This document shows positions 36,710 through 64,000 of a DNA stretch of 64,000 nucleotides, one piece after another (position 1 is the stretch's first letter; each line of letters starts with the position of its first letter). Under the pieces are notes generated by a model. The model was not told where the DNA came from. It made no database searches and was given only the letters and a program-made list of their open reading frames with translations. Origin of the DNA: an uncultured Bifidobacteriaceae bacterium (GTDB lineage Bacteria; Actinomycetota; Acidimicrobiia; IMCC26256; PALSA-555). The stretch is taken from positions 1,069 to 65,068 of the forward strand of contig CAZKTS010000288.1 in assembly GCA_964555735.1 (NCBI GenBank). Direction: 5' to 3'. Made by a program: the position numbers and the translations under genes.

Positions 36710-36719
36710 GCGCTATTCG
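36710..36719 (+). promoter_or_regulatory. class-E box GCGCTATTCG, 7 nt before ATG 36727
   Basis: gtGCGCTATTCGtgagtgcATG. Confidence 0.45.
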
Positions 36720-36726
36720 TGAGTGC

Positions 36727-36987
36727 ATGCGCGTCTCTCTGGTCGATGTGCTGGAGGCGGTGCGAGCGGAGTTCGCGCGCGGTCATCACCCGCGGGCGCT
36801 CGTGCGGCTGGGTGATGGGTGGATCGAGTGCTGGACGCTGACGGTGGCGCCTGAGCGGGCCGCCGGCCTGCGGCGTCACCTCGGGTCGCGCTGCCGGTGG
36901 CCGGCGGCGGGGATGCCCGAGGTGCCCGGGTACACGCCGATCGCGCTGATCCACGGCGATCTGCTGATTCTCGCCCGCCAACCTTGA
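36727..36987 (+). CDS. hypothetical protein (86 aa)
   Basis: ATG 36727 lies 7 nt after a GCGCTATTCG box. Confidence 0.45.
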   Translation: MRVSLVDVLEAVRAEFARGHHPRALVRLGDGWIECWTLTVAPERAAGLRRHLGSRCRWPAAGMPEVPGYTPIALIHGDLLILARQP

Positions 36988-37012
36988 CAGCCCTATGCAC
37001 CGGGCATATACC
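36984..37012 (+). promoter_or_regulatory. canonical sigma70-type promoter TTGACA-N17-TATACC upstream of the UvrD-like helicase operon
   Basis: Perfect -35 TTGACA at 36984-36989, a 17-nt spacer, TATACC at 37007-37012, ~38 nt before ATG 37050. Confidence 0.6.
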
Positions 37013-37049
37013 TGGGGCGCGGCTGAGATGGCGGCCGCGGAGGCACCCC

Positions 37050-38561
37050 ATGATCAACACGTTCCTGGCTCACAGTGATTCGGCGGATGAGGCGGCACCG
37101 GCGTCGGCGCCGGTGAAGGCGGCGCGCGAGTGGTCGCCATACCAGGCGGCTGTGTTCGCGGACGTCGAGAGCGGCGAGGGCAACACGATCGTCTCGGCGC
37201 GCGCCGGAAGCGGCAAGACGTCGACGATCGTGGAGGCGCTGCGCTACTTGCCGCCCGGCAGCAAGGCGCTGCTGGTCGCCTTCAACAAGAATATCGCGCA
37301 GGAGCTGTCCACGCGCGCGCCCAAGGGTGTCGACGTGATGACGCTGCACAGCTACGGGCTGCGCGCCGTCAAGGCGCGCAACCGCGCCGCGGAGATCGAC
37401 AGCGACAAGTCGCGCAACATCGCACGCGAGCTGTACGGCGATGATGCGAAGTTCTTCGGGGCGGCCTTGCCCAAGGCGGTCGGGCTCGCGAAGAACTTGC
37501 TCCTCTCGACGGCGGAGGAGATCGACGCGGTGCTCGACGGGTACGGGGTCGACATTCCGGGGCCGGCGACGGCGGCGGCGCGGGCGAAGTTCGTGGCCGC
37601 GGTGGTCGCGGTGGTCGAGGCGAGCAAGCGCGACCTCGACACGATCGACTTCGACGACATGATCTGGCTGCCGGTGGTCCTGCGCTTGCCGACGCCGCGA
37701 TACGCGCGGGTCTTTGTGGACGAAACGCAAGACCTCAACCCCTGCCAGATCGAGCTGGTGCTCGGGTCGGTGGCGACCGGCGGCCGCGTGACGGCGGTGG
37801 GCGATGACCGGCAGGCGATCTACGGCTTCCGCGGCGCCGACCGCAACGCGATGGAGCGCGTCCGCGCCGCACTCGGCGCGAAGGTGCTGCCGCTGTCCAT
37901 CACGTATCGCTGCGCGACGGCGATCGTGAAGGTGGCGCAGGCGATCGTGCCCGACCTGGAGGCGGCGCCGGGTGCGGCGGAGGGTAGCGTGGCAGAGCTG
38001 CCGTGGGCGCAGGCGTCGCAGCGGCTGGAGGCGGGCGACATGGTGATCTCGCGCACGAACGCGCCGCTGGTGCGGGAGCTGCTGCGCGCGGTGCGCGCGG
38101 GGCGCCGGGCGACGATGCTCGGGCGCGACTTCGGCCAGGCGTTGACCGGGCTGATTCGCAAGAGCAAGGCGGCGACGATCGCGCAGCTCGACGCCTACAT
38201 CGACCAGTGGGAGGCGCGCGAGGTGGCGCGGCTGGACGCGAAGGGGCGCGACACGGGCGCGGTGCGCGATCGCGCCGACACGCTGCGCGCGCTGGCCGAG
38301 GGGGCGACCTCGCCCGAGCAGGTGATCTCGACGATCGAGAGGTACTTCGCCGAGAACGCGGCGAAGGACGCGGTCGTGTTCTCCTCGACTCACAAGGCGA
38401 AGGGCTTGGAGGCGCACCGGGTGGTGCTCTTCGCCGACACGTACCGGCCGGGTCGCTCGGTCGAGGAGGATAACCTCTGGTATGTCGCGGTGACGCGCGC
38501 CAAGGTGGAGCTGGTGCTGGCGTACGGCGCCGGGCAGGACGACGAGCAGGGGGCGGCGTGA
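37050..38561 (+). CDS. UvrD/PcrA/Rep-family SF1 helicase (503 aa)
   Basis: Motifs ARAGSGKTST (I), VFVDETQDLNP (II), VGDDRQAIYGFRGA (III), ITYRC (IV), STHKAKGLEAHRVVLF (V), YVAVTRAKVELVL (VI). A canonical promoter lies upstream. Confidence 0.9.
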   Translation: MINTFLAHSDSADEAAPASAPVKAAREWSPYQAAVFADVESGEGNTIVSARAGSGKTSTIVEALRYLPPGSKALLVAFNKNIAQELSTRAPKGVDVMTLHSYGLRAVKARNRAAEIDSDKSRNIARELYGDDAKFFGAALPKAVGLAKNLLLSTAEEIDAVLDGYGVDIPGPATAAARAKFVAAVVAVVEASKRDLDTIDFDDMIWLPVVLRLPTPRYARVFVDETQDLNPCQIELVLGSVATGGRVTAVGDDRQAIYGFRGADRNAMERVRAALGAKVLPLSITYRCATAIVKVAQAIVPDLEAAPGAAEGSVAELPWAQASQRLEAGDMVISRTNAPLVRELLRAVRAGRRATMLGRDFGQALTGLIRKSKAATIAQLDAYIDQWEAREVARLDAKGRDTGAVRDRADTLRALAEGATSPEQVISTIERYFAENAAKDAVVFSSTHKAKGLEAHRVVLFADTYRPGRSVEEDNLWYVAVTRAKVELVLAYGAGQDDEQGAA

Positions 38562-39154
38562 TGCCGCCCCGGGTCCGCACTCGCAAGGGGTCGCATCCGG
38601 TCGGGGAGATGATCTGGTCGTACGGGTCGAATCTCTACACGCCGCAGGCGCTGAGCCGGTGCCCGAGCGCGGTGCGGGTGGGTCCGGCGGCGCTGCACGA
38701 CCACGCGATCGAGTTCGTCGGGTACTCGGCGGGCTGGGGCGGCGGGGTCGCGACGGTGATCCCGGCGCACGGGTCGCAGGTCGACGGCGAGCTGATGATC
38801 GTGCGGGAGAGCGATCTGGCGCGGCTCGATGCGTACGAGGGGGCGCCGGACGTCTACCAGCGGATCAAGGTGGAGGTGGTGGCGACCGCGACCGACGGCG
38901 CGCCGTACCGCGTGCCGTGCTGGACGTATCGGCACACTCGCGGGGTGAGTGCGCGGCGCGACCCGAGCGCGGCCTACATCGCGCGCATCGCGGCGGGATA
39001 CGGGCGACTCGGCTTCGATCTGACGCCGGTGATCGCGGCGATGGGCCGCGCGAATGCTGCGCGGTGGACACAGACTCAGCTGACGTGGGAGCGAGAGCAT
39101 GCGACAAATCGAGATCCGAATCCTGGCCCTGGACCCGGCCGCCGTAGTCGGTGA
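38558..39154 (+). CDS. gamma-glutamylcyclotransferase (GGCT/AIG2-like fold) with ~65-aa C-terminal extension
   Basis: WSYGSNL...RCPSA ... WGGGVATVIP ... VDGELM ... LARLDAYEG ... YQRIKVEV ... PCWTY is collinear with the human GGCT pattern (YGSNL, PSA, WHGGIATI, LDEQEG catalytic Glu). Start is GTG 38558, ATG 38561 or ATG 38609. Confidence 0.85.
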   Translation: MMPPRVRTRKGSHPVGEMIWSYGSNLYTPQALSRCPSAVRVGPAALHDHAIEFVGYSAGWGGGVATVIPAHGSQVDGELMIVRESDLARLDAYEGAPDVYQRIKVEVVATATDGAPYRVPCWTYRHTRGVSARRDPSAAYIARIAAGYGRLGFDLTPVIAAMGRANAARWTQTQLTWEREHATNRDPNPGPGPGRRSR

Positions 39155-39398
39155 GGTGCGCGAGCTGGCGCTAGTGCGCGGCTGGCAGTGGGGCGGCGCG
39201 CGAGACAATCCGATCGGCGCGACGGCGGGCACGGTGGCGCCGGAGACGGCCGACCAGATCCGTGCGCTGCGGGCGCAGGGGCTCTCGATCGGGGCCATCG
39301 TGGCGACGCTGAATGAGCAGGGCGTGACGGGCCCGCGCGGCGGGCGGTGGTGGCCGCGGACGGTACACCTCGCGCTGCGGCGGCTGGGGCTCTCGTGA
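39099..39398 (+). CDS. small DNA-binding protein resembling the 'Recombinase' wHTH domain of serine recombinases (no catalytic domain)
   Basis: IRALRAQGLSIGAIVATLNEQGVTGPRGGRWWPRTVHLALRR matches the i..l...G.s...Ia..Ln..g..t.rGg.W....V..il pattern. The alternative start is GTG 39156. Confidence 0.55.
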   Translation: MRQIEIRILALDPAAVVGEVRELALVRGWQWGGARDNPIGATAGTVAPETADQIRALRAQGLSIGAIVATLNEQGVTGPRGGRWWPRTVHLALRRLGLS

Positions 39399-40566: not shown

Positions 40567-40790
40567 TCGCCGCGCTGGCGCGCCTTCGAGTGGTCGCCCA
40601 CCCCTGACCCGCCCGCCCGGGCAAAGCGCGCCTACGGGGCTCCTACGGGCCCCGGGCGCCAATGGGCCTAATCGCCTCGCTGGCGCGTCGGGCGAGGCTG
40701 GGGCACCTAGCACCCGTCCGGCGCCCAAAAGCGCGCCTACGGGGCGCCTGTGCGGCCCGGCGGGCGGTCTTGGCCCTGGGGCGAGGGGAA
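40558..40790 (+). repeat. composite intergenic repeat, copy C (double)
   Basis: Contains CCTAATCGCC.CGCTGGCGCG twice (~40563 and ~40667), AAAGCGCGCCTACGGGG twice (40623-40639 and 40728-40744) and GGGCACCTAGCACCCG (40701-40716). Confidence 0.75.
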
Positions 40791-40793
40791 GTG

Positions 40794-40864
40794 CCGCCCG
40801 CGTACCCGTCGGTCGTGCGGTCGAGGGGATGGGCGCTCCGACATCGGGCCGGGTACGCGGGCGG
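40794..40864. repeat. 14-bp perfect inverted repeat (CCGCCCGCGTACCC / GGGTACGCGGGCGG), 43-nt spacer
   Basis: Arms at 40794-40807 and 40851-40864. Confidence 0.75.
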
Positions 40865-40947
40865 CGAGGTGCAGCCTACCACGGGCGGCCGCGCTCGATC
40901 GGGGTCGGGGCTTGGCCGGTCCTTGCCGGTCTTCGACAAGCCTCGGC

Positions 40948-40969
40948 GAGCGCATGTCCGCATGCGCTC
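40948..40969. repeat. 9-bp stem / 4-nt loop hairpin GAGCGCATG-tccg-CATGCGCTC
   Basis: Perfect palindrome arms. Confidence 0.75.
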
Positions 40970-41070
40970 GCGCGCGCCGCCCGGCGGGCGGCGCAATCGC
41001 GTCACGGCCGGCGCGGATCGGCCTACGGCCGATAAGCCTCTTCGATGATTCCCTGAGGAGAATCTCTGAC

Positions 41071-41128
41071 GCGCACGGGCGCGCTTGCGCGCACGTACGC
41101 ATGTACCCGCGTGGGCGCGCCCGTGCGC
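41071..41128. repeat. 14-bp perfect inverted repeat (GCGCACGGGCGCGC / GCGCGCCCGTGCGC), 30-nt spacer
   Basis: Arms at 41071-41084 and 41115-41128, followed by (CGCACA)n-like repeats. Confidence 0.75.
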
Positions 41129-41154
41129 ACACGCACACGCACGCGCGGGCGCGC

Positions 41155-41183
41155 GAGGCGGCGGCACCGGCGGCGCTCGGGGC
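41155..41183 (+). repeat. 29-bp perfect direct repeat, copy 1
   Basis: GAGGCGGCGGCACCGGCGGCGCTCGGGGC. Confidence 0.8.
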
Positions 41184-41190
41184 GGCCGCG

Positions 41191-41210
41191 GTGTCTACCC
41201 GAGTAGACAC
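41191..41210. repeat. 8-bp stem / 4-nt loop palindrome GTGTCTAC-ccga-GTAGACAC
   Basis: Perfect arms. Unusually A/T-containing for this DNA. Confidence 0.75.
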
Positions 41211-41344
41211 CGATCGGCGGGGCTGGGGGGAACTGGTGCAACGTGGCGGGATCGCGAGGCGAATCGGCATCGCCGCTCGACGCGCATGCACTAGCCTCGC
41301 GGTGTATGCGGTATGTGAGTGAGCCGAACTAGCGGCCCGCGCTA

Positions 41345-41373
41345 GAGGCGGCGGCACCGGCGGCGCTCGGGGC
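41345..41373 (+). repeat. 29-bp perfect direct repeat, copy 2
   Basis: Identical 29-mer 190 bp downstream of copy 1, and 34 nt before the class-E box at 41407. Confidence 0.8.
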
Positions 41374-41406
41374 TGGGGCTGAATTAGCGGGGCCGGCCGC
41401 AGTGGC

Positions 41407-41416
41407 GCGCTATTCG
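41407..41416 (+). promoter_or_regulatory. class-E box GCGCTATTCG, 7 nt before ATG 41424 (SF2 helicase)
   Basis: ggcGCGCTATTCGgggtgggATG. Confidence 0.5.
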
Positions 41417-41423
41417 GGGTGGG

Positions 41424-42890
41424 ATGGCTGTGCGGGTGCGTGCGACGCTGGAGCTAGCCCTGGCTGACGTGCCGGCGGAGCTGGTGGACGCGCTGCGCGC
41501 GGAGTTCACGGTCGCGAACCCGGTTCGCGCGAAGCTGGAGGCGATGGGGCGGCGCAACCGTGCGATGGCGTGGCGCGCGGCGAAGACGCCGGCTGAGCTG
41601 CGGTTCTGGCGCGAGGCGGGGGGTGTGCTGCATCTACCGCGGGGCGCGGTGTCGCGAGTGCGGCGGGTGGCGGAGGCGCACGGGGTGCGGCTGACGTGGC
41701 GCGATGAGCGGGAGGCGGGCGGGGACTTCTACGCGCGTGCGATCGCGCATCGCCCGGCGAGTCGCGAGGCGGATGGTGGGGCGCTGCGGTGGTATCAGAC
41801 CGAGGCGATTGCGCGGGCGATGGATCGGCAGTGCGGGATCATTCGCGCGCCGACGGGGTCGGGCAAGACGACGATCGCGCTGGGGCTGGTGGCGGCGGTT
41901 CGGGTGCCTACGCTGGTCGTGGTGTGGTCGGGCGCGCTATTCGACCAGTGGGTGCAGCGACTGCGCGATGAGTTGGGGCTGCGCGCCGATGAGATTGGGC
42001 GATACGGTGCGGGGCATGATCAGGTGCGGCCGGTGACGGTGGCGATGCAACAGAAGCTCTGGCGCGGCATGTCGCGGGACTTCGTCGCGCGGTGGGGGAT
42101 GGTGGTGATCGATGAGGTGCAGCGCGCGCCGGCGCGCACGTTCGCCGAGGTGGTGGGCCAGATCCCGGCGAAGTACCGGATCGGGATCAGCGCAGACGAG
42201 ACGCGACCCGATGGGCTGGAGGCGGTGACGTACGACGTGTTCGGGCCGCTGGTGTACGAGGTGTCGCGCGATGACTTGATCGCGGACGGCAGCGTGCGCG
42301 ACGTGGAGATCCGGGTGGTGCCGACGGAGTTTCGCGCGGACTGGTATCGCGATCAGCTAGCGCGGCGGCAGATCCCAGACATCAAGCGGTTGCTCGATGA
42401 GATGGAGGCGGACGACGCGCGCAACGAGCTAGTGGCCGAGGTGATGCAGGGCGAGGTGCGCGAGGGCCGGCAGGTGGCGATGGTGGCGTCGCGGGTCGCG
42501 ATCTGTCGGCGGGTAGATGCGGCGTTGGCGGCGCGGCGGGTGGGGTCGGGCGTGGCGGTGGGCGAGGACGGCGCTGCGGCGGGCGAGGCGATCGCGCGGT
42601 TGAAGTCGGGCGAGCTGCGCGCGTTGTGCGCGAGCATCCAGCTATTCGGAACGGGCGTGGACGTGCCGGCGTTGTCGCGCGGCGTGCTGGCGACTCCGAT
42701 CGGGTCGAATCGCCAGCTGTTCGGCCAGGTGCGCGGGCGGCTGTCGCGACCTGGTGAGCCGGCGGTGCTCTATGTGCTGTGGGATCGACACGTCTACAGC
42801 GCGAACATGCTGCGGCGGCTGGAGGCGTGGAATCGGCGCGTGTTGGTGCGCGTCGGTGGTGGCTGGGTCGATGCGAGTGAGGTGGAGTAA
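41424..42890 (+). CDS. SF2 DEAD/DEAH-box (DExH) helicase, type III restriction Res-like/XPB-like
   Basis: WYQTEAI (Q), RAPTGSGKTT (I), VIDEVQRAP (II), SADETR (III), GTGVDVP (V), QVRGRLSR (VI). Confidence 0.85.
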   Translation: MAVRVRATLELALADVPAELVDALRAEFTVANPVRAKLEAMGRRNRAMAWRAAKTPAELRFWREAGGVLHLPRGAVSRVRRVAEAHGVRLTWRDEREAGGDFYARAIAHRPASREADGGALRWYQTEAIARAMDRQCGIIRAPTGSGKTTIALGLVAAVRVPTLVVVWSGALFDQWVQRLRDELGLRADEIGRYGAGHDQVRPVTVAMQQKLWRGMSRDFVARWGMVVIDEVQRAPARTFAEVVGQIPAKYRIGISADETRPDGLEAVTYDVFGPLVYEVSRDDLIADGSVRDVEIRVVPTEFRADWYRDQLARRQIPDIKRLLDEMEADDARNELVAEVMQGEVREGRQVAMVASRVAICRRVDAALAARRVGSGVAVGEDGAAAGEAIARLKSGELRALCASIQLFGTGVDVPALSRGVLATPIGSNRQLFGQVRGRLSRPGEPAVLYVLWDRHVYSANMLRRLEAWNRRVLVRVGGGWVDASEVE

Positions 42891-43626: not shown

Positions 43627-43817
43627 GTCGCAAGGACCGAGTGATGTTGGCGGCGTGGGTGTCACCCGAGGTGCGCGAGGTCGCGCGGGTGGAAGCCGCG
43701 GCGGCGTGTATGGAGTTCTCGCGGTGGGTCGAGTGGGCGGTGAGGCGCGCATTCGCTGAGGAGGTTTCGCGGCAGGTGTTGCGGGATGACGCGGAGAAGG
43801 ACGCGGCGGGTCGATGA
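43623..43817 (+). CDS. ribbon-helix-helix (CopG/Arc-like) protein (64 aa)
   Basis: GTGA overlap. KDRVMLAAWVSPEVREVARVEAAAACMEFSRWVEWAVRRAF shows a beta-alpha-alpha pattern. Confidence 0.55.
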   Translation: MSRKDRVMLAAWVSPEVREVARVEAAAACMEFSRWVEWAVRRAFAEEVSRQVLRDDAEKDAAGR

Positions 43818-43848
43818 CGTGCAAGGAGTGCCACGGGTGCCGACTGGT
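43744..43848 (+). repeat. direct repeat copy 1 (~105 bp) flanking the DUF2829 gene
   Basis: 62 nt (43744-43805) are identical to 44177-44238. The next ~43 nt differ at about 6 positions. Confidence 0.85.
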
Positions 43849-43894
43849 GACGTGCAAGTTCTCACAGACAGAGGAGAGGGTTAATCATGGCTGA
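43814..43894 (+). pseudogene. truncated 5' copy (26 codons) of the zinc-ribbon gene at 44247
   Basis: MTCKECHGCRLV then diverges, compared with MMCKECHGCRLVGWSG at 44247. It lies in copy 1 of the ~105-bp direct repeat. Confidence 0.5.
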
Positions 43895-44162
43895 TTTCTC
43901 ATGGGCGTTGGCGGAGCTGAGGGCAGGGCGGCTGGTAGCTCGGGAGGGGTGGAACGGGAAGGGCCAGTGGCTCGCGCTCCCGAGGGCGTATCCGCGCGGC
44001 ATTCCGATCGACAAGAACACGGCTGAGGCGACGGGGATCCCCGAGGGGACGGTCTGCAGGTTCTTGCCGTACATCATCGTGCGGACGGTCGATGGGGCTT
44101 TCGTGCCGTGGCAGGCGTCGCAGACGGACGTGATGGCTGAGGACTGGGCGGCGCCCCCATGA
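43887..44162 (+). CDS. DUF2829-family protein (Tad2-like candidate anti-Thoeris nucleotide sponge)
   Basis: FSWALAELRAGRLVAREGWNGKGQWL ... LPYIIVRTVDGAFVPWQASQTDVMAEDW matches the DUF2829 hallmarks (A...lk.Gk.v.R.gW.gkg ... pW..SqtDllAeDW). GGAGAGG RBS. GC is lower than in the neighbours. Confidence 0.85.
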   Translation: MADFSWALAELRAGRLVAREGWNGKGQWLALPRAYPRGIPIDKNTAEATGIPEGTVCRFLPYIIVRTVDGAFVPWQASQTDVMAEDWAAPP

Positions 44163-44176: not shown

Positions 44177-44281
44177 GGCGCGCATTCGCTGAGGAGGTTT
44201 CGCGGCAGGTGTTGCGGGATGACGCGGAGAAGGACGCGCGCGGCCGATGATGTGTAAGGAGTGCCACGGGTGCCGACTGGT
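44177..44281 (+). repeat. direct repeat copy 2 (~105 bp) flanking the DUF2829 gene
   Basis: Duplicate of the RHH gene's 3' end plus the zinc-ribbon gene's 5' end. Confidence 0.85.
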
Positions 44282-45046: not shown

Positions 45047-45279
45047 GCGTGACGCTGCGGACGTTGCGGGTAGAGCGCCCGGACTGGGCGTGGACGGCCG
45101 AGCGCGCGGGGATGGGGTGGCGATATGTTGGAGCACGCGGAGGGCGGCAGGTGGTGGTTTTCGCGTGTGCGCGGCTGATCGGCGAGGATGAGTTTGCGAC
45201 GGAGTGGCGTGTGGATGATGGAGCCATCTCGCGGTCTTATGTGTCGTGGTGGCTGGAGTGCGAGGCGCGGTCGGCATGA
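45043..45279 (+). CDS. hypothetical protein (78 aa)
   Basis: ATGA overlaps at both ends. Confidence 0.5.
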   Translation: MSVTLRTLRVERPDWAWTAERAGMGWRYVGARGGRQVVVFACARLIGEDEFATEWRVDDGAISRSYVSWWLECEARSA

Positions 45280-46748
45280 TGCGGCGGCGCGTGGGGTCTG
45301 GTGAGCGGGCGGCGCCTGCGGCGGTGCAGATCCCGCACGACGTCGTCAACGAGCAGGCGGTGCTGGTCGCGGCGTTGGCGGACGCCGATGTTCGGCGCAA
45401 GCTGACGCTGCAGATCAAGCCGGACGAGTTTGTGGTCCGCGAGCACGGTGTCTTGTGGATCGCGCTCGGCGAGGTGGCGAAGCGCCGGCTGGAGCCGGAC
45501 CTCGCGACGCTGCAGCAGCTGACGGGTGATGAGAAGTCGGCGCGGTATGCGATCGAGCTGGCGGGCGCGTTGGGTGCGCCGGCGAACCTTGACCATCATG
45601 TCACGGCGATGCGGTGGGATCGCGCGCGCGTTGAGGCGTCGACGGGGCCGCTGGCGCAGCTGATCGAGCTATTGCGCGACCCGCAGACGGAGCCGGCGCG
45701 GGTGCAATCGGTGGCTGGGCAGCTGGCGGAGGTGTTTCGGCGCGGTGCGGCGCATGAGCTACTGCGCGACCCGCAGGCGTTGTCGGCGGCGACACGGGCG
45801 GAGCGGGCGAGGCGCCGCGAGCGGGCGGTGTACCCGTACGGGATCGATGGGCTCGACTACACGGAGGACGGGGCGGTGCGAGTGATGCCCGGGTGTGCGC
45901 CGGGCAAGGTGACGGTGGTGACGGGCGTTCCGGGTTCGGGCAAGACCACGGTGGCGGCGCAGATGGCGCTAGGGCAGCTGCGTGCTGGGCGGACGGTGCT
46001 CTATGGCGCGTGGGAGATCGGGGCCGAGGCGGCGCTGGAGATGCTGGCGACGCTGTCGGTTGGGCAGTCGCGCTCGAAGGTTCTGGCGGCTGGGATCACG
46101 GCGGAGGAAGAGCGCGAGATCGAAGCCGAGGAGGAGCGGCTGCAGGCCGATCGCCGGCTGTATTTCGTGGGGCGCCCGAAGCGGGTGGTGGGGTCGCACA
46201 CGGCGCGCGGAGTGAGTGCGCACAACCTGCGAGCGTTGGAGGCGGTGCACGCGGCGATCGTGGAGACGGGTGCGGAGGTTTTCGTGGCCGACTTGTGGAA
46301 GCGCATGCTGACGGAGACGCGGCCCGAGGACGAAGAGGCGGCGTTCGAGGTGCAGCAGGACGTGTGTCAGCAGACGGGGTGCCACGGGCTGCTGCTGCAG
46401 CAACAGCGATTCAAGGACATCGAGTCGCGGCCCGACAAGCGGCCGACGCGCGAGGGGATCAAGGGATCGGGCACGTATGTCGAGGTCGCGGATGTGATCG
46501 TCGGCGTGCACCGCCCGGCGCTGTGGAAGAATATCGCGGACGACACGCTGGAGCTGATCTTGCTGAAGCAGCGATGGGGCGGGCGGGCGACGGCGATCGA
46601 GTTCGATTGGCACGGCGACACGGCGTCACTCGCGAACCCGCGCGAAGTACCGCTCGACGATGGCGTGCGAGGGCATGACGACGCGGACGACTTTCTGGCG
46701 CCGCGGGTGGGCAGCCCGAAGCGCGCGCGCAAGGGTGCGGGGCGGTAG
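45276..46748 (+). CDS. dnaB: DnaB-family replicative helicase
   Basis: The N-terminus PHDVVNEQAVLVAALAD is a DnaB_N-type pattern. Walker A is TGVPGSGKTT. RecA-like core (VFVADLW, LLLQQQRF, REGIKGSGTYVEVADVIVGVHRP). Confidence 0.85.
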   Translation: MMRRRVGSGERAAPAAVQIPHDVVNEQAVLVAALADADVRRKLTLQIKPDEFVVREHGVLWIALGEVAKRRLEPDLATLQQLTGDEKSARYAIELAGALGAPANLDHHVTAMRWDRARVEASTGPLAQLIELLRDPQTEPARVQSVAGQLAEVFRRGAAHELLRDPQALSAATRAERARRRERAVYPYGIDGLDYTEDGAVRVMPGCAPGKVTVVTGVPGSGKTTVAAQMALGQLRAGRTVLYGAWEIGAEAALEMLATLSVGQSRSKVLAAGITAEEEREIEAEEERLQADRRLYFVGRPKRVVGSHTARGVSAHNLRALEAVHAAIVETGAEVFVADLWKRMLTETRPEDEEAAFEVQQDVCQQTGCHGLLLQQQRFKDIESRPDKRPTREGIKGSGTYVEVADVIVGVHRPALWKNIADDTLELILLKQRWGGRATAIEFDWHGDTASLANPREVPLDDGVRGHDDADDFLAPRVGSPKRARKGAGR

Positions 46749-47674
46749 TGGTCGTCGATGTACCGCGGCTGTTGGAGGCGCTGGGCATCGCGCAGGGCAA
46801 GGCGCGCAACGCGCGCGAGGTGTGGTGCTTGTGTCCGGCGCACGTCGATCGGTCGCCGAGCTGGTCGATCGACCTGAAGGACGGCAAGCACTTCTGCTTT
46901 GCGTGCTCGTTCGGGGGCGGCCCGCTCGATCTGGTGATGCACGCGCGGAAGCTGACGCGCGGCGAGGCGGCGCAGTGGGTCCGCGATTCGGGCCTGGCGC
47001 TCGATTCGGCGACGCTGCCGGAGACGCGCGTGGTGTTGCGGGTGGGCTCGCTCGATCGGTTCGTGATGCCCGCCGAGGTGCAGATGGCCGAGCCGTGGCC
47101 GGCGGAGGCGCAGGCGTACGCTGAGCGGCGCGGCATCACCCGCGAGCAGATCGAGCGGTGGGGGATCGGGTACGCGGCGACGGGTCGCTTGGCCAAGCGG
47201 CTGGTGATCCCGATCGTCGATTGGCTGGGGCGGCTGTCGGGCTACACGGCGCGGACGTGGTCCACCTCGCCGGTGCGCTACTTGACCCCGAGCGAGGCTG
47301 AGCACCCGCGGCGGGAGGTGCTGTTCGGTGAGCGGCACTGGTTCGCGATCGGCGCGGAGGTCGTGGTGGTGACGGAGGGGGCGATCGATGCGTTGGCGGT
47401 CGAGCGCGCGTGTGAGGGGCGCTTCGCGGTGGCGGCGCTGAGCGGTGCGAGCAATTCGCGATCGAGGCTGGTGCAGGCGAAGCTGGCGCGATTTGGCTGC
47501 GTGGTGCTGGCGACCGATGTGGATTCGGCGGGAGACGCCGCGGCGGCCGGGTTGCGGGTGGCGCTCGCGCGGCACACTCACGTCGTCCGGCTGCGATACC
47601 CGGCGGGCGTTGACGCGGCTGGTATGGATCGGGCAGGCTTGGCAGAGTTGATCGTGGACGCGGTGAGCCGATGA
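46748..47674 (+). CDS. dnaG: DnaG-type DNA primase (CHC2 zinc finger + TOPRIM)
   Basis: CLCPAHVDRSPSWSIDLKDGKHFCFAC is a CHC2 finger. VVVTEGAIDALAV ... LATDVDSAGD is TOPRIM. Confidence 0.85.
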   Translation: MVVDVPRLLEALGIAQGKARNAREVWCLCPAHVDRSPSWSIDLKDGKHFCFACSFGGGPLDLVMHARKLTRGEAAQWVRDSGLALDSATLPETRVVLRVGSLDRFVMPAEVQMAEPWPAEAQAYAERRGITREQIERWGIGYAATGRLAKRLVIPIVDWLGRLSGYTARTWSTSPVRYLTPSEAEHPRREVLFGERHWFAIGAEVVVVTEGAIDALAVERACEGRFAVAALSGASNSRSRLVQAKLARFGCVVLATDVDSAGDAAAAGLRVALARHTHVVRLRYPAGVDAAGMDRAGLAELIVDAVSR

Positions 47675-48431: not shown

Positions 48432-48452
48432 ACTTGAGGCGCGCCAAGGTTG

Positions 48453-48462
48453 GCGCTATTAG
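48453..48462 (+). promoter_or_regulatory. class-E box variant GCGCTATTAG with a 40-nt leader and AAGGAG before ATG 48503
   Basis: ttgGCGCTATTAGgtctgc...AAGGAGtcgagcATG. Confidence 0.4.
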
Positions 48463-48502
48463 GTCTGCACGCGCCACGAACCGGCGCGCAAAGGAGTCGA
48501 GC

Positions 48503-48934
48503 ATGGAAAACACGCGGACGCTGCTGAAGGCGGCGCACAAGGAGCTGGCGGGGCTGATGGGTGGGCGCGCGCGCATGGCGCGGCGCGAGCGGCTGCGGGT
48601 GGCGCTGGAGGCGGGCGTCATGGTGCGGACGCGCAAGGGTGCCGAGGTGGCGATCGCGCTGTCGCCGATCGACAGCGTGATCCACGCGATCGAGCTGATC
48701 AAGCTCGGCGAGGCGGTGCCGGCCGCGGCGGTGCAGCGGCTGCGGGCGGCCTTCGGCGCGGCGCCCGGGCGGCCGCAGGTGGCCGAGGCCGTGCGGCGGG
48801 CGATGGACGGCGCGGGCGTCGCGGCGGCCGCGCGGGATGCGTTCCTGCAGGCGATCGATCTGGACGTGGAGACGGCCGAGTCTCCGCTGGCGGCGGGGCT
48901 GGACGCGGCGCGGCGCCGGCGGGGGCGCGCGTGA
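48503..48934 (+). CDS. hypothetical protein (143 aa)
   Basis: AAGGAG RBS at 48491-48496. A GCGCTATTAG box lies 40 nt upstream. Confidence 0.5.
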   Translation: MENTRTLLKAAHKELAGLMGGRARMARRERLRVALEAGVMVRTRKGAEVAIALSPIDSVIHAIELIKLGEAVPAAAVQRLRAAFGAAPGRPQVAEAVRRAMDGAGVAAAARDAFLQAIDLDVETAESPLAAGLDAARRRRGRA

Positions 48935-53001: not shown

Positions 53002-53011
53002 GCGCTATTGG
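53002..53011 (+). promoter_or_regulatory. class-E box GCGCTATTGG, 7 nt before ATG 53019
   Basis: tcGCGCTATTGGgggtggcATG. Confidence 0.5.
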
Positions 53012-53018
53012 GGGTGGC

Positions 53019-53732
53019 ATGGTGAGGCGACGGCGTGCGGCCGAGGTGACCGGGTCACCCGCGGCGGGTGGTGGGGTGGACGTGGGGGCGCTCGATCCGT
53101 TGGCGGCGTACGTGGCGAGCTGGTCAGAGCCGCATCGACCGCCGGCGGGGCCCGGCGAGGCGGAGCTGGTCGCGCGAGCCGAGCCGAGCAGGCCAGAGCC
53201 GAGCAGGCCAGAGCCGCCCGCGGCCGAGGAGCGCGTCAGCCGGTTTCTGGCGGCGGGGCCGGTGCACGGGCGCGGGTACGATCGGATCGTGGAGCGCGTG
53301 TTCGATCTGCCGGATCCCGACGATGAGTATCGCGCGCTGGAGGCGGCGCTGGTGGTGGGCGACCGCGAGCACGATTCGCTGGCGGCGGCGCTCGACCGGG
53401 CCGAGGACAACGCGCGCCGAGCGCATCGGCTCTATGTCGCGGCGAAGCTCGACCGCGATCGGTATGAGGCGGACGCCGAGGTGGTGACGGCGGCGCTGCG
53501 CGAGCAGGCGACCGACGTGCTGCAACAGCAGAAGGCGGCGGGGCTCCGCTCGAAGGCGATCACGGACGCGGACGTGCTGGCGCAGTGCGCGGCGATGCAC
53601 CCGGATGAGTGGCGCGACATTGTCGACCGCCGCTCGCGGGCGCGGCTGACGGTCGAACATCTCGAACGGCTCGCCGACCTGTGGGTGAGCCGTTGCAGGT
53701 CGTTGACGGCGCTGCTGTCGGCGAGGCGTTGA
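53019..53732 (+). CDS. hypothetical coiled-coil protein (237 aa) with EPSRP tandem repeat
   Basis: ATG lies 7 nt after a GCGCTATTGG box. Helical C-terminal half. Confidence 0.55.
   Translation: MVRRRRAAEVTGSPAAGGGVDVGALDPLAAYVASWSEPHRPPAGPGEAELVARAEPSRPEPSRPEPPAAEERVSRFLAAGPVHGRGYDRIVERVFDLPDPDDEYRALEAALVVGDREHDSLAAALDRAEDNARRAHRLYVAAKLDRDRYEADAEVVTAALREQATDVLQQQKAAGLRSKAITDADVLAQCAAMHPDEWRDIVDRRSRARLTVEHLERLADLWVSRCRSLTALLSARR
53181..53216 (+). repeat. 15-bp tandem repeat (GAGCCGAGCAGGCCA x2.4) encoding EPSRP-EPSRP-EP
   Basis: Units at 53181-53195 and 53196-53210, with a partial third unit. Confidence 0.8.
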
Positions 53733-59109: not shown

Positions 59110-59591
59110 TGGTCGACTCGCGCGAGAAGGGGGCGCGAGCGGAGCGCGAGGTGGCGGCGCTGCTGGTGGGGTGGTGGTGCCGGCGGGAGCCCGGGACGCG
59201 GTTCGTGCGCTCGCCTGGGTCTGGCGGGTGGGCGACGGCGGACGTACGCGCCGAGTTCCGCGCGAGCGGGGATCTGATGACGACGGCGGCGGAGTTTCCG
59301 TGGTCGGTCGAGGTGAAGCGCCGCGAGCGGTTCGTGCTGTCGCGGGTGGCGGAGGGGCGGCAGAGCCCGGTGTGGCGGTGGTGGTGGCAGGCGTGCGGCG
59401 CCGCGCATGAGGCGTGCGTGCGGCCGATGCTGTGGCTGCGCGCGTCGCGTGCGCCGTGGGTGGTCGTGCTGAGCGATTCGGAGCCGATCGATCGCGCGCT
59501 GGGTGGGCGGTATCGTCGCGTCCAGTGGCAGCGCGTGGTCATGGTGGACGCGGAGGCGTTGCTGCAGAGTGACCCGGGGCACTGGATTTGA
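59097..59591 (+). CDS. PD-(D/E)xK nuclease, Hjc/Holliday-junction-resolvase-like
   Basis: KGARAEREVAALL...GSGG...GDLM...WSVEVKRRE fits the KG...ER ... D ... E.K pattern. Confidence 0.5.
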   Translation: MGGVVVDSREKGARAEREVAALLVGWWCRREPGTRFVRSPGSGGWATADVRAEFRASGDLMTTAAEFPWSVEVKRRERFVLSRVAEGRQSPVWRWWWQACGAAHEACVRPMLWLRASRAPWVVVLSDSEPIDRALGGRYRRVQWQRVVMVDAEALLQSDPGHWI

Positions 59592-60052
59592 CGGAGATTG
59601 ACGCGGAGTGCACACTGCCGGGCGTGGCGACGTCTACGCCGACCCTCGCGGATGCTCGCGCGGCCTACGCGGCCGCGCAGGTCGAGCTGCGCACGGTGGC
59701 CGCGGATGGCGCGGTGGGGCCTGAGTTCGAGGCGGCCGCGCGGCGGGTGATGGCGGCGGCGACGGCGGTAGCGCAGGCGCAGCACCGCGAGGCGCGGAGC
59801 ACGGCGCAGGTGGGCACTTGGCGGCCGCCGAATGCGGCGCACGTTCTCGGGACGTGGGAGCCGCGGCTCTTCGATCCCGAGACGGGCTTGCCCGAGCCGC
59901 AGCGGGTGATGTGCATCTGCGAGTGGCCAGACTGCGGCGGGGTGTGGACGACGGAGTGCTCTAGCGGGCTGGTGCGTGAGCACGTCCAGCGTTTCGCGCT
60001 GGTGCACTTGCACCGCGACGTCTTCGCGCCGCCCGTCCGCGCTACTCGGTAG
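59588..60052 (+). CDS. hypothetical protein (154 aa)
   Basis: TTG start overlapping the upstream stop. High GC3. Confidence 0.4.
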   Translation: MTEIDAECTLPGVATSTPTLADARAAYAAAQVELRTVAADGAVGPEFEAAARRVMAAATAVAQAQHREARSTAQVGTWRPPNAAHVLGTWEPRLFDPETGLPEPQRVMCICEWPDCGGVWTTECSSGLVREHVQRFALVHLHRDVFAPPVRATR

Positions 60053-60054
60053 GT

Positions 60055-60237
60055 ATGGGCTACCTGAATGCGGAAGATCGGGTGCGTTTGCTCGATGCGT
60101 TGAACCGGGTGGAGCTGTGGGCCCGGCTGCGGACGGTCGTGGTGGGCGATGAGCGGCTCGCGCGATGGGTCGCGCGGGGGCTGGCCGAAGCCGAGGTCGA
60201 TCTGCTGCACCTAGCGCGAGAGGTGGCCCGTGAGTAG
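60055..60237 (+). CDS. hypothetical protein (60 aa)
   Basis: ATG lies 2 nt after the upstream stop. Confidence 0.4.
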   Translation: MGYLNAEDRVRLLDALNRVELWARLRTVVVGDERLARWVARGLAEAEVDLLHLAREVARE

Positions 60238-60248
60238 ACTCGGGCGGG

Positions 60249-61045: not shown

Positions 61046-61626
61046 GTGACGCGGCGGTGCTTGCGGCGGCGCTGTTGGCGCTGCCGGTCGCGTGGTATCC
61101 GCCGGGGCGCGAGCCGGAGACGGAGGCGCAGCGCGTCGCGCGGTACGGTGTGATCGCGGATGCGATCGACCATGCGAGCCGGCGGGCGACGACGTGTGAG
61201 GGTGCCGGGTGCGCGCCGCTGTGGCCGTGGCCGCGGGATGAGCTGGTGGCGGTGCTGGCGGCTCAGGGCTGGTGGGAGACGCGCTATGCGCACCACGTCC
61301 ACGCTGGGCGGTGCCGGCGGCACGAGTGCGACACGCGCAACGGGCGCGCGCGGGCGGTGAGCCCGTGGCAGATCCAGATGACGGCGCTCGTACCGCGCGC
61401 GGAGTGGTCGACGCTCACGGGAACGGGGTTCGAGCCGACCGAGCGCGCGGCCTACGCGGCGGCGAAGGTGCTGGCGTCGTCTCGCGCGCGATGCGCGAAG
61501 TCTGAGGCGTGGGCGGCGCCCACGATCGCGATGTACGCGACGGGGGCGCGATGCCGGTGGCGGGGCGCTCGGGTGCGAGCGGCGACGGTGGGGCGGCTGC
61601 TGGTGGCGCTGCGCGCTACTCGGTGA
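61042..61626 (+). CDS. secreted lytic-transglycosylase-like protein (SLT-like)
   Basis: N-terminal hydrophobic signal AAVLAAALLALPVAW. GWWETRY (candidate catalytic Glu) and GRARAVSPWQIQ (compare A.GlmQi). Confidence 0.4.
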   Translation: MSDAAVLAAALLALPVAWYPPGREPETEAQRVARYGVIADAIDHASRRATTCEGAGCAPLWPWPRDELVAVLAAQGWWETRYAHHVHAGRCRRHECDTRNGRARAVSPWQIQMTALVPRAEWSTLTGTGFEPTERAAYAAAKVLASSRARCAKSEAWAAPTIAMYATGARCRWRGARVRAATVGRLLVALRATR

Positions 61627-61654
61627 GGGCGCCGAGGCGCGACTGGAGGCGGAC

Positions 61655-61855
61655 GTGGACAACGAACCGATCGTGTTAGCGCTGAGTGCGACCGAGGTGG
61701 CGGAGGCGGTCTGGCGGTACGCGGCGGCGCGAGACAAGCTGTCGGCCGAGGTGCTCTCGGGGCGCGTGACGGCGGTGTCGTTCAGCGCTGGTGGTCGCAC
61801 GCTGACGGAGTATCCGGTGGTCGCGGTTGCGTTCTTGCCGGGGCGCGGCGCGTGA
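61655..61855 (+). CDS. hypothetical protein (66 aa)
   Basis: GTG start. High GC3. Confidence 0.4.
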   Translation: MDNEPIVLALSATEVAEAVWRYAAARDKLSAEVLSGRVTAVSFSAGGRTLTEYPVVAVAFLPGRGA

Positions 61856-62460: not shown

Positions 62461-62690
62461 TGCTGTGTGAGCACGGGCATGGGGTCGCGTGTGGCGCGTG
62501 CGCGGCGGCGCTGGAGGCGGCGGTGGGCGCGAAGCGCGCGCTCGCCGCGATGCGGCGGGCCGCGTTCTGGCTGGAGGAGCTGGAGCGCCACGACACGCTG
62601 TCGATGGACGCCGCGGGCGACCGCGCGAGGCTGGCGAGCTACCTAGCGATCGCGGTCGTTCGGGCGCGTGCTCGGGAGATGGGGCGGTGA
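62460..62690 (+). CDS. hypothetical protein (76 aa)
   Basis: TAATG overlap. CEHGHGVACGAC N-terminus. Confidence 0.45.
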   Translation: MLCEHGHGVACGACAAALEAAVGAKRALAAMRRAAFWLEELERHDTLSMDAAGDRARLASYLAIAVVRARAREMGR

Positions 62691-62860
62691 AGGAGAGGCG
62701 GCATGTGTGCTCTGAGTGCGGCAAGCTGGCACCGGCAGCGCAGCTGGTGCCCAAGCGGGACGCGGGGAACCGGCGGCACTGGTTTCATCCTGCGTGCTGG
62801 GCGCAGCTCTGCGCGTGGATGAGCGGCGGGCTTCGCCCAGTGCGCGAATCGCTGCGGTGA
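62687..62860 (+). CDS. small Cys/His protein (57 aa)
   Basis: GTGA overlap. HVCSECG...HPAC. Confidence 0.4.
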   Translation: MKERRHVCSECGKLAPAAQLVPKRDAGNRRHWFHPACWAQLCAWMSGGLRPVRESLR

Positions 62861-63276
62861 TGGGAGCGCCGCGCGTGGTGCGCTCGGTGGAGATCGCGAG
62901 AGCGGTCAAGGCTGAGCCGCGCGAGCCGCGGCACTTGCCGCTGACGCGGGGCGAGTGCGAGCAGAGTGCGCGGCCGTGTCCCTACGTGAGCTGTCGACAG
63001 CACTTGTTTGCGGACGTCACGATCGGCGGGGCGATTCGCCCGAATTTCGACGTCGACATCTTGGAGCTGGAGCGGCTGCCCGAGACGTGCGCGCTCGACG
63101 TCGCGGCGAGGGGCGCGCACGGGTTGGACGCGATCGCGGCGGTGATGAATCTGACCAGCGAGCGGGTGCGGCAGATCGAGCTGAGCGGGCTCGGCCAGGT
63201 GCGGCGGGTCGCGCTCGCGCTCGATCTGGCATTCGAGGTGGGGCCGCCGTCGTACTGGGACGCGGGCGACGGATGA
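62860..63276 (+). CDS. sigma-70 region-4-like HTH DNA-binding protein
   Basis: CPYVSCRQHLF ... ETCALDVAARGAHGLDAIAAVMNLTSERVRQIELSGLGQVRR matches the common phage 'sigma factor-like HTH' pattern (sCaLDva..g..tleeig..lg.TrERvRQIE..al.KlR). Confidence 0.8.
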   Translation: MGAPRVVRSVEIARAVKAEPREPRHLPLTRGECEQSARPCPYVSCRQHLFADVTIGGAIRPNFDVDILELERLPETCALDVAARGAHGLDAIAAVMNLTSERVRQIELSGLGQVRRVALALDLAFEVGPPSYWDAGDG

Positions 63277-63377
63277 CCGGCGCGCGGGTAGTGGCGGTCG
63301 CCCTGGGGCGCCTGGGCGGGCTCAAGGGCGGCAAGGCTCGGGCTGCGAGCCCGCTGGTCGCGATAGTGGCGGTTTGA
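63273..63377 (+). CDS. short KGG-motif peptide (34 aa), possibly truncated
   Basis: ATGA overlap. GRLGGLKGGKARAAS resembles the start of small GG.KGGkARA..LS..eR..IA..AA..RW proteins, but the usual C-terminal half is missing. Confidence 0.3.
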   Translation: MTGARVVAVALGRLGGLKGGKARAASPLVAIVAV

Positions 63378-63381
63378 AGGA

Positions 63382-63597
63382 CTACATCGACAATGTCCCG
63401 TTAAAAACCAGCGCGTTAGACCTGGGCGCGAACTTCGTGGAGTTTCGCTCCAACGGGAGCGGCTTCAGAATCGGCATCTTCGGCGTTGGCTCCACCGACT
63501 TGCGCGCCGCGGCCTGGGCCGCGCTCAGCAATTCCGCCGTCAGGCGCGCTTGCCGCTGCAGTGCCTCTTGAACCTCCCGCGTCGTTGACGGTCGCAT
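63382..63597 (-). CDS. hypothetical protein (71 aa); the only plausible minus-strand gene
   Basis: ATG 63597 is preceded by a perfect AAGGAG 6 nt upstream (on the minus strand). GC is lower than its surroundings. It competes with a + strand ORF (63374..63571) that shares the same wobble positions. Confidence 0.4.
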   Translation of the reverse strand: MRPSTTREVQEALQRQARLTAELLSAAQAAARKSVEPTPKMPILKPLPLERNSTKFAPRSNALVFNGTLSM

Positions 63598-63612
63598 GAG
63601 CTACTCCTTGCC

Positions 63613-63627
63613 GGGTCAAACTGACCC
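63613..63627. promoter_or_regulatory. palindrome GGGTCA-aac-TGACCC in the divergent intergenic region (operator candidate)
   Basis: 6-bp perfect arms with a 3-nt spacer, lying between the minus-strand ATG 63597 and the class-E box at 63641. Confidence 0.4.
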
Positions 63628-63640
63628 ACTACCGGCGCGC

Positions 63641-63650
63641 GCGCTATTGG
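63641..63650 (+). promoter_or_regulatory. class-E box GCGCTATTGG, 6 nt before ATG 63657
   Basis: gcGCGCTATTGGgtaggcATG. Confidence 0.5.
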
Positions 63651-63656
63651 GTAGGC

Positions 63657-64000
63657 ATGGACACAGGCCGACGGCATCGGGTGCGCTGGCAGCCGGAGGG
63701 CGCGGCGGTCGAGCTGAGGGGGCCGGGAATCCGATCGGTCATCGGCGAGGCGATGGCGCGCCGCGGGATTGCGCGGCGATATGCCGCGCTGCGGGAGCGG
63801 TGGCCAGGGTTGAAGCCGCGGGTTTACGTGGCATTCGCGCCGGTCGATCTGCGGGTGGTCTGCGGCGTGCCTGGGGGTGAGATGCCCGTGCAGTCGCTGG
63901 TGGTGGCCGGGTGCGAACCGAGCTGGGTGGACGGCGAGATCCGGGCCGAGGACCATGCGCGGCTGGTGGATGCGCTGGAGGTGGTGATCGCTAGGATGTT
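63657..64000 (+). CDS. hypothetical protein, 5' part (runs off the window)
   Basis: My own translation gives MDTGRRHRVRWQPEGAAVELRGPGIRSVIGEAMARRGIARRYAALRERWPGL..., open to nt 64000 with high GC3. ATG lies 6 nt after a GCGCTATTGG box. Confidence 0.55.
   Translation, partial: MDTGRRHRVRWQPEGAAVELRGPGIRSVIGEAMARRGIARRYAALRERWPGLKPRVYVAFAPVDLRVVCGVPGGEMPVQSLVVAGCEPSWVDGEIRAEDHARLVDALEVVIARM

Follow-up and report, generated by a model that had tools for sequence, protein, structure and literature searches.

A conserved box before gene starts in the replication half of an uncultivated phage: a probable −10 promoter element

Introduction

What role could a short, strongly conserved sequence have when it recurs a few nucleotides before start codons in one half of a phage genome and is absent in its exact form from the other? 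This question is raised by a 64,000-nt stretch of phage DNA (contig CAZKTS010000288.1; hereafter the window), in which an initial annotation had noticed the box GCGCTATTSG, here called class E, ahead of several genes. The box was set apart from a differently spelled one, class L, and was suggested to mark a temporally distinct class of promoters that also yields leaderless mRNAs. We conclude that the class E box probably serves as the −10 region in a set of phage promoters, which the host RNA polymerase reads to give mostly leaderless mRNAs.

The window has a G+C content of 71%, and its + strand carries nearly all genes. Portal, capsid, tail and baseplate-type genes fill the first part (1–36.3 kb), and a replication and recombination module, referred to below as the non-structural half, occupies the remainder (36.7–64 kb).

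The class E box and its placement

Five exact copies of GCGCTATTSG occur in the window, at 36710, 41407, 41934, 53002 and 63641, all on the + strand. Dinucleotide shuffling gives an expected count of 0.19, and none of 100 shuffles reached five. Four of the five copies lie 6–7 nt ahead of an ATG that opens a gene (ATG36727, ATG41424, ATG53019 and ATG63657, at spacings of 7, 7, 7 and 6 nt), as the initial annotation had stated. With an ATG frequency of 0.0103 per position, chance would place an ATG at +6 or +7 behind four or more of five copies with a probability of 8.6e-7. The annotation had also proposed a comparison with coding sequence, and the box proved not to be equally frequent there: its density is 80-fold higher in non-coding DNA (four copies in ~3.0 kb versus one in ~61 kb of coding sequence).

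Two kinds of variant extend this set. A TAG variant, GCGCTATT, contributes an additional site at 48453, and a one-mismatch search combined with inspection of all gene junctions found GCGCTACTCG at 60039 and 61613. This brings the set to seven sites, none of them outside the non-structural half, with a common 17-nt consensus, sGCGCTAYTsGGkrgg (~20.6 bits), beyond which their flanks are unrelated. A weight matrix built from the seven scores them at 20.8–24.1 bits, by construction, while the next-best site in the window, at 57409, scores 19.1 bits and is without the A. Exact GCGCTATTSG is absent from 1–36 kb of the window. Other public contigs of the same phage extend the window by 9.6 kb on its upstream side and by 1.8 kb on its downstream side, and these extensions have no exact copy either.

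The remaining exact copy (41934..41943, + strand) lies inside the SF2 helicase gene, as had been noted, and is not counted as a site. It encodes Ala-Leu-Phe-Asp, and codon usage predicts ~0.2 copies of GCGCTATTSG in coding sequence. Its score is 13.3 bits, against 20.8–24.1 for the seven sites on which the matrix was trained, because the conserved G-rich flank is missing. This internal copy is probably compatible with chance.

ATG41424, ATG53019, ATG63657 and ATG60055 are each the earliest in-frame start past the upstream stop, and ATG36727 is preceded by one in-frame GTG, at 36703. An independent gene caller, run on public contigs of the same phage, picked ATG36727, ATG41424 and ATG63657.

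All seven sites are on the + strand, and each heads a gene or block of genes. GCGCTATTCG stands 7 nt before ATG36727 (36710..36729), the start of an 86-amino-acid gene that heads the UvrD-like helicase block, and again 7 nt before ATG41424 (41407..41426), the start of the SF2 helicase gene, where it closes an 840-nt non-coding stretch. At 48453..48505, GCGCTATTAG is followed by a 40-nt leader with AAAGGAG and then by ATG48503, an arrangement that the annotation had described correctly; the block that begins here runs into the family B DNA polymerase (PolB). The 237-amino-acid gene after PolB opens at ATG53019, 7 nt past GCGCTATTGG (53002..53021), and its block contains RecA-like and Mre11/Rad50-like genes. 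GCGCTATTGG also lies 6 nt before ATG63657 (63641..63659), where a 123-amino-acid gene opens; this copy falls within a divergent region of 59 nt.

The two GCGCTACTCG variants lie at 60039..60057, 6 nt before ATG60055, and at 61613..61657, where a 32-nt leader with GGAGG precedes GTG61655. Both overlap the end of the upstream gene, which in each case reads R-A-T-R-stop. These ends have an identical 13-nt string and use the rare codons GCT (4% of Ala codons) and ACT, which looks like selection on the DNA rather than on the protein.

A few local features adjoin these sites. The 3' end of gene 59588-60052 (window positions 59964-60036), which adjoins the box at 60039, is predicted to form a strong structure (−43.3 kcal/mol, z = −3.7 versus shuffles). 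A minus-strand gene of 71 amino acids at 63382-63597, with an AAGGAG ribosome site, faces the box at 63641 across the 59-nt gap; it is the only clear minus-strand gene near class E sites and has no family match. The hairpin GGGTCAaacTGACCC lies in this gap. Outside the window, 5.8 kb upstream of its start, the public contig L020 carries a class-E-like sequence with one mismatch at 3805-3814, GAGCTACTCG GGGTGCGGGT, which overlaps the end of a ParB-like gene and is separated by 10 nt from the GTG that starts a DNA methyltransferase gene. This could be an eighth class E site, in an accessory region.

Promoter-like features and relation to class L

Several features of the box recall the −10 element of sigma-70-type promoters. 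The dinucleotide TA is invariant in all seven sites, and the hexamer that it opens ends 6–7 nt before the ATG at five of them. A G at −14 is likewise found in all seven, preceded at −15 by C rather than by the T of an extended −10 TG. The five close sites leave no room for a Shine-Dalgarno sequence, and AGGAG and GGAGG are absent from the box and from the 6–7-nt spacer, while 48453 and 61613 have a separate Shine-Dalgarno sequence in their leaders, 20–30 nt downstream. Putative −35-like hexamers, with at least four of six matches to TTGACA at 17–18 nt, occur at three of the seven sites versus 7.9% of random anchors. These are GTGACG (36690..36695, + strand), 18 nt upstream of TATTCG; TTGAGG (48434..48439, + strand), 17 nt upstream of TATTAG; and CTGACC (63621..63626, + strand), 18 nt upstream of TATTGG.

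From these features we infer a promoter function, a transcription start at the ATG and the host enzyme as reader. A sigma-70-type holoenzyme, most likely the host's, would recognise G(−14)-C-T(−12)-A(−11)-Y-T-S-G with little or no dependence on a −35 element. The DNA would open at the TA, and transcription would start at, or 1–2 nt from, the A of the ATG 6–7 nt downstream. Five units (36727, 41424, 53019, 60055 and 63657) would consequently begin as leaderless mRNAs. The units at 48503 and 61655 would start ~7 nt past the box and have leaders of ~25–35 nt with their own Shine-Dalgarno sequence. The seven boxes would in this way partition the replication and accessory half into units, as boxes of the TGnTANNNT type would do in the structural half.

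The relation to class L bears directly on this proposal. Class L had been described as (G)TGATAGGCT(C) at 9246, 12255, 18488, 24871, 29551 and 30480, with TAGGCTCG at 11267; its sequence is that of an extended −10 element, TGnTAGGCT. More generally, a TANNNT hexamer ends 6–8 nt before the start codon at 13 gene starts, ten of them in the window (434, 3599, 9246, 11267, 12255, 16120, 24871, 29551, 30480 and 60235) and three in L020 (3065, 7117 and 7384). The hexamers are TAGGCT, TAGGGT, TAGCGT, TACGCT, TACGAT and TAGACT, with G at −14 in nearly all cases. Class L is therefore a broader and looser set than the four GTGATAGGCTC copies, and one member, TAGACT at 60235, falls in the replication half.

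As the annotation had held, the spacing of class E matches that of class L: relative to the start codon, its TA is in register with the TA of the 13 TANNNT boxes. The G at −14 is common to both, and both show a modest excess of −35-like hexamers at 16–19 nt. The two differ at −16/−15, at −13 and from −10 to −7, with G at −7 in class E and T in class L. They also differ in location. All seven E sites lie at 36.7–63.7 kb. The range from −6.5 to +30.5 kb, by contrast, takes in 12 of the 13 TANNNT sites, the exception being at 60.2 kb (Fisher P = 1.0e-4), which upholds the earlier statement that the box is confined to the replication and accessory half. Because E and L share G-14, T-12, A-11, their spacing and weak −35-like hexamers, the same sigma-70-type holoenzyme may read both.

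The earlier claim of a promoter class with leaderless mRNAs consequently stands in part. The −10-like register and the lack of room for a Shine-Dalgarno sequence argue for it, if only indirectly and from sequence, whereas the features shared with class L leave a distinct promoter type unsupported, and a temporally distinct class is no more than a possibility. The two canonical promoters that had been named, each with a good −35 element, do exist at the level of sequence: TTGACG-17-GAGAAT stands at 6159, and 36984 has TTGACA-17-TATACC. The proposal that the window holds three promoter types is plausible for sequence families, but not for mechanisms. A sigma-54 promoter was considered as another candidate and rejected, as the box has no TGGCAC / TTGC context. 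A GG lies 10 nt before the GC of the box in three of the seven sites, which is about the chance level as judged by eye from the site sequences.

Some observations weigh against a −10 role. Position −7 is G in all seven sites, where sigma-70-type −10 elements almost always have T. For this reason we do not claim strict membership of the TANNNT class, only that the box works like one; the promoter at 36984, whose TATACC also lacks T at −7, makes the G a weaker class marker than it appears. The −35-like hexamers, at three of seven sites, are a modest signal (binomial P ~0.013). The 17 conserved nucleotides (~20.6 bits) exceed what a −10 element needs, which hints at an extra reader. Before the boxes there is no consistent terminator-like hairpin, the fold at 60039 (z = −3.7) being the only strong one, so that the unit boundaries have no independent mark. 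Nor is any motif, whether operator, −35 or palindrome, shared upstream of the seven boxes, where the best k-mers equal the random background. Lastly, the relatives described below are distant and their box differs (C at −12, GCGG), so that the case for homology rests on where the element lies and falls short of proof.

Conservation in distant relatives

The phage has no close relative among deposited phage genomes. A megablast search of 18 kb of the window against 50,697 phage records gave zero matches, and tblastn searches of deposited phages with PolB and the portal returned matches of only ~30% identity or below. For the SF2 helicase, the nearest homologue in a set of 5.8 billion proteins has 55% identity. 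The same phage is also represented by ten public contigs, all from one set of public runs; they are 100% identical across the window, and microdiversity is therefore uninformative. The annotation had suggested looking for the box at orthologous junctions in related phages. This comparison could be made with contigs whose helicases are 34–55% identical, whose G+C content is 47–69%, and in which the helicase is followed, in conserved order, by two small genes and then by DnaB, primase, PolB, the 237-amino-acid gene and RecA. A portal-based search for the structural modules of these relatives returned a single unrelated contig.

The exact class E box is found at the same place in no relative contig examined. 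A degenerate form, GCG[GC][CT]AT[TA], is present at two orthologous junctions, upstream of the helicase and at the end of PolB. Before the helicase start it reads GCGCCATTGT in L112 and L114 (6–7 nt before the ATG), GCGGCATTGT in L005 (7 nt), CCCTATTTAG in L016 (8 nt), GCGGCATAAC in L002 (9 nt), GCGGCATTAT in L120 (9 nt) and GCGGCATAGG in L126 (10 nt), while L123 and L124 carry GCGGCATTAC and GCGGCATAAC with longer leaders. At the other junction, aCGGCATAAc (L007) and GCGTCATTGA (L001) span the PolB stop, with a Shine-Dalgarno leader behind them. GCGCTATT itself recurs unchanged 7 nt ahead of a start in L122 and 10 nt ahead of one in L016. Neither of the two sequence-based outcomes that the annotation had named as refuting its view, equal frequency in coding sequence and lack of conservation in related phages, was therefore seen.

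Counts across 29 non-redundant loci of relatives, in which a start was defined by an open reading frame of at least 50 codons, agree with this picture. A start lies 4–10 nt downstream of 17 of 52 forward copies of GCG[GC][CT]AT[TA] versus one of 38 reverse copies, a ratio exceeded by 0.5% of 398 column-permuted control motifs. GCG-N ranks among the tetramers preceding YATW with the strongest enrichment near starts (19/68 versus 9.4% overall). L131 has a consensus −35, TTGACG, at 17 nt from the hexamer CATAAC, as for a sigma-70 −10 element. Many of the relatives' copies sit 20–40 nt upstream of a separate Shine-Dalgarno sequence.

In L002, L006, L118, L123 and L126, the GCGG-CAT-W box often comes right after a 16–18-bp palindrome (CCGCAACACGTGTTGCGG, CCGCAAACCGGTTTGCGG, GTCACACCGGTGTGAC and GTGACGATCGGCGTCAC), which has no counterpart at the boxes of the window. 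These palindromes may be operators or terminator hairpins.

The reading enzyme and the probable host

A search for an enzyme encoded by the phage itself covered about 75 kb of the 83-kb genome (the longest public record of the phage is 83,345 bp), with ~8 kb unseen. When ~80 proteins were scanned against Pfam and PHROGs, neither an RNA polymerase nor a sigma region 2 nor a WhiB-like protein came to light, and no scanned protein of more than 300 amino acids had a Pfam RNA polymerase match. Catalytic motifs like DxDGD or DFDGD are absent from the real reading frames, where two chance DxDxD matches occur near protein ends, and PDB searches with a 906-amino-acid protein gave no match. No repressor or integrase was recognised among the scanned proteins, and helix-turn-helix matches were weak only.

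The single sigma-related match is a 138-amino-acid protein encoded at 62860-63276. Over its last 40 residues it resembles primary sigma factors in their region 4.2 (E = 4e-4 in Pfam, and E = 5e-10 for a profile against PDB). The N-terminal part is Cys-rich (RPCPYVSC..HL), and the C-terminal part forms a helix-turn-helix. Homologues, with 42–47% identity across the aligned family, occur as a chromosomal gene in conserved synteny in metagenome-assembled genomes (MAGs) named at NCBI as Sandaracinaceae, Sandaracinus, Polyangiales and Myxococcota. The gene adjoins an oligopeptide transporter in every MAG locus, and the Sandaracinaceae loci have a G+C content of 71–72%. No counterpart was found in the loci of the phage's relatives. 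On the strength of this one gene, the host is probably a Sandaracinaceae-like member of the Myxococcota. The protein itself might be a host-derived regulator that competes for −35 elements or for the polymerase flap.

Host-lineage loci offer a further hint. In one locus of a Sandaracinaceae MAG (L137; GCA_040218145.1, 72% G+C), a TA-hexamer lies 6–7 nt before the start in 5 of 19 genes versus ~8% expected, namely those at 3561, 10257, 11821-12195(−), 14552-15316(−) and 15371-16597(−). The hexamers are TAGCGT, TATCCT, TACGGT, TACCCG and TAACGA, the last two without T at −7, and both the leaderless style and the non-T at −7 may therefore be traits of the host lineage. A second candidate locus has fewer TA-hexamers before starts. 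This small sample hints that leaderless expression is common in these Myxococcota. A limited literature search found no report of a −10-adjacent leaderless style in myxobacteria. A scan of reference genomes for prophages that could indicate the host gave just generic Walker-A matches in cyanobacteria.

Alternative explanations

The invariant GCGC, the G-rich discriminator, the G at −7 and the segregation from TANNNT boxes leave a little room for a class-specific helper or a phage factor. The box could, in other words, be a promoter read by a phage specificity factor, such as a sigma that has diverged, a protein that binds RNA polymerase or a phage RNA polymerase that escaped recognition, and so define a separate early or middle class. 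This explanation, which we consider unlikely, would account for ~17 conserved nucleotides (20.6 bits) with G at −7 and invariant GCGC from −16 to −13, and for the strict separation of E from TANNNT boxes by genome half. It would also fit the recurrence of GCG-N before YAT-W near starts in relatives whose 47–71% G+C presumably reflects different hosts. The polymerases of Thermus phage P23-45 were barely detected by sequence search (PMC10770324), which provides a precedent, and the phage does encode a free-standing protein like sigma region 4.2. That protein, however, is a copy of a host chromosomal gene without counterpart in the relatives' loci, and neither an RNA polymerase, nor sigma region 2, nor a DxDGD motif in a real frame was found in the ~75 kb read. 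The register, the G-14/T-12/A-11 pattern and the −35-like hexamers suit an ordinary sigma-70-type enzyme, as does the pairing of CATAAC with TTGACG at 17 nt in L131. A wider version, less likely again, holds that GCGS-YAT-W (here GCGCTAYTSGG) is the site of a phage-encoded sigma-like or RNA-polymerase-binding specificity factor, and marks a family-wide, host-independent class of replication-gene promoters. The factor would then be conserved across a large uncultivated phage family with an SF2 helicase-DnaB-primase-PolB-RecA module and a G+C content of 47–71%.

Explanations in which the box is not itself a promoter fare worse. As an asymmetric, stoperator-like operator bound by a phage regulator, it would block or tune transcription through the non-structural genes. 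Its single orientation and its place in short gaps or at gene ends in one genome arm do resemble stoperators (PMC4351075, PMC3203893); several helix-turn-helix proteins are encoded, and the relatives' box often abuts a palindrome. Yet a fixed distance of 6–7 nt to the ATG and a register in common with TANNNT hexamers are unexpected of an operator, only seven sites exist, each heading a gene block, and neither a repressor or integrase nor a palindrome or second conserved motif upstream of the window's sites was identified, which makes an operator improbable. An action on RNA, either as a start-associated sequence that helps the ribosome or as a processing site that yields leaderless mRNAs, is more doubtful still. 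The geometry does resemble that of the start-associated sequences that Cluster K and Cluster EF phages carry, 3–7 bp before mostly ATG (PMC3203893, PMC7302621). Such an action, however, would leave the invariant TA in −10 register unexplained, and the box has no Shine-Dalgarno core, with GGGTGG 1–2 nt from the ATG. A translational role is also hard to reconcile with two sites and many of the relatives' copies, which have a Shine-Dalgarno sequence of their own 20–40 nt further downstream. It is hardly credible that the boxes are functionless, whether as recombination-junction repeats between modules or as chance matches. Phage genomes are mosaic, and the copy at 41934 illustrates that the 10-mer can arise in coding sequence, but the shuffles, the spacing to the ATG, the unrelated flanks outside the 17-nt core and the degenerate form kept at two orthologous junctions all speak against it.

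Comparison with known systems

Taken as the −10 region of host-read promoters, the class E box is closest in working principle to leaderless promoters with the −10 element next to the open reading frame, and to the promoter classes of P23-45. A leaderless, −10-adjacent arrangement is described as common in Deinococcus-Thermus (PMC12340547); such promoters are also known from Actinobacteria and have been predicted for Cluster O mycobacteriophages (PMC4351075). Class E resembles them in its TA-hexamer 6–7 nt before the start, in the lack of a Shine-Dalgarno sequence at close sites and in a weak or absent −35 element. It differs in that the hexamer is TAYTSG, with G at −7, and not TANNNT, and in its invariant GCGC and G-rich discriminator. 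The probable host, a myxobacterium, also lies outside these groups.

P23-45 similarly has several motif-defined promoter classes tied to gene blocks in one genome (PMC10770324). Its early classes, however, are read by two phage polymerases, of which none was found here, and the timing of its classes is known. Earlier work on P23-45 reportedly found −35-independent extended −10 promoters and many leaderless transcripts.

In appearance, the closest sequences are the start-associated sequences (SAS, with ESAS for their upstream inverted-repeat pairs) of Cluster K and EF actinobacteriophages, the former being mycobacteriophages and the latter Microbacterium phages. These too are asymmetric, conserved and confined to one orientation in the non-structural half, and they lie a few bp before a mostly ATG start; their function is still unproven (PMC3203893, PMC7302621, PMC12699233). 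Unlike the class E box, SAS carries the Shine-Dalgarno core AGGAG at the ribosome-binding position. The class E box instead has a −10-like TA, and occurs also 32–40 nt upstream of a separate Shine-Dalgarno sequence. About half of SAS sites have an upstream 17-bp inverted-repeat pair (ESAS), and none of the window's E boxes does.

The stoperators of Cluster A mycobacteriophages are likewise asymmetric, oriented with transcription and often placed in short intergenic gaps (PMC4351075). They differ in being genome-wide, bound by the immunity repressor and at no fixed distance from starts, whereas class E has seven sites at a fixed distance and no repressor was found. Stoperators number ~25–30. 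The late promoters of T4 read TATAAATA, are recognised by gp55, and need this phage sigma together with gp33 and the sliding clamp. These promoters lack a −35 element; an extended −10-like box sets their class, which serves a single block of phage genes, as is proposed for class E. No proteins like gp55, gp33 or the clamp were detected here.

A search of the literature for the box sequences themselves returned only unrelated primer matches.

Neighbouring genes and repeats

The replication module encodes a UvrD-like helicase (37050-38561), the SF2 helicase (41424-42890), a DnaB-like helicase (45246-46748), a primase (46748-47674) and PolB (50441-52981), as well as RecA-like, Mre11/Rad50-like and PD-(D/E)XK proteins. 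No known RNA family (Rfam) was found in the window.

A repeat family of ~105 nt, with a near-invariant core (AAAGCGCGCCTACGGGGC) and a conserved small hairpin (GGCGC...GCGCC), has copies at 24745-24849, 40567-40671, 40672-40776 and 52840-52944, and a weak copy near 8572. One copy ends 22 nt before the class L box at 24871, and another, inside the PolB frame, ends 58 nt before the class E box at 53002. The repeat may act as a terminator, as an insulator or as an element to which a protein binds. Two copies lie in the 840-nt region 40567-41406, directly upstream of the helicase box, which has no coding signal in any frame and no Rfam match, and which also holds a direct repeat, gaggcggcggcaccggcggcgctcgggg, at ~41150 and ~41347. 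This region is a candidate replication origin or non-coding RNA region.

Another pair of 105-nt direct repeats (43744-43848 and 44177-44281; 94% identical) flanks gene 43887-44162, whose product has a domain like Thoeris anti-defence 2 (Tad2; Pfam E = 2.6e-22). At 43773 there is a break in public assemblies of the same phage. The segment 43744-44281 looks like an inserted anti-defence cassette.

Just past window position 64000, the public contigs L018 and L019 diverge from L017 in gene content, one variant having a 98-amino-acid gene where other contigs have genes of 31 and 91 amino acids. Strain variants therefore exist outside the window.

Significance

The class E signal is real, useful for phage annotation and mildly interesting for the promoter biology of high-GC bacteria, though not surprising. 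In metagenomic phage contigs, the box and its degenerate form can be used to locate where operons begin and which start codons are the true ones. Its invariant G at −7 and GCGC (−16 to −13) make it a test of promoter identity outside the TANNNT core in such bacteria. If the boxes are −10 regions read by the host polymerase, they would provide a transcription map for a phage lineage that has no cultured member and almost no annotated regulators, with seven one-box units in the replication half and ~12 TGnTANNNT-headed units in the structural half. Leaderless expression would then reach a phage of a likely Sandaracinaceae-type myxobacterial host.

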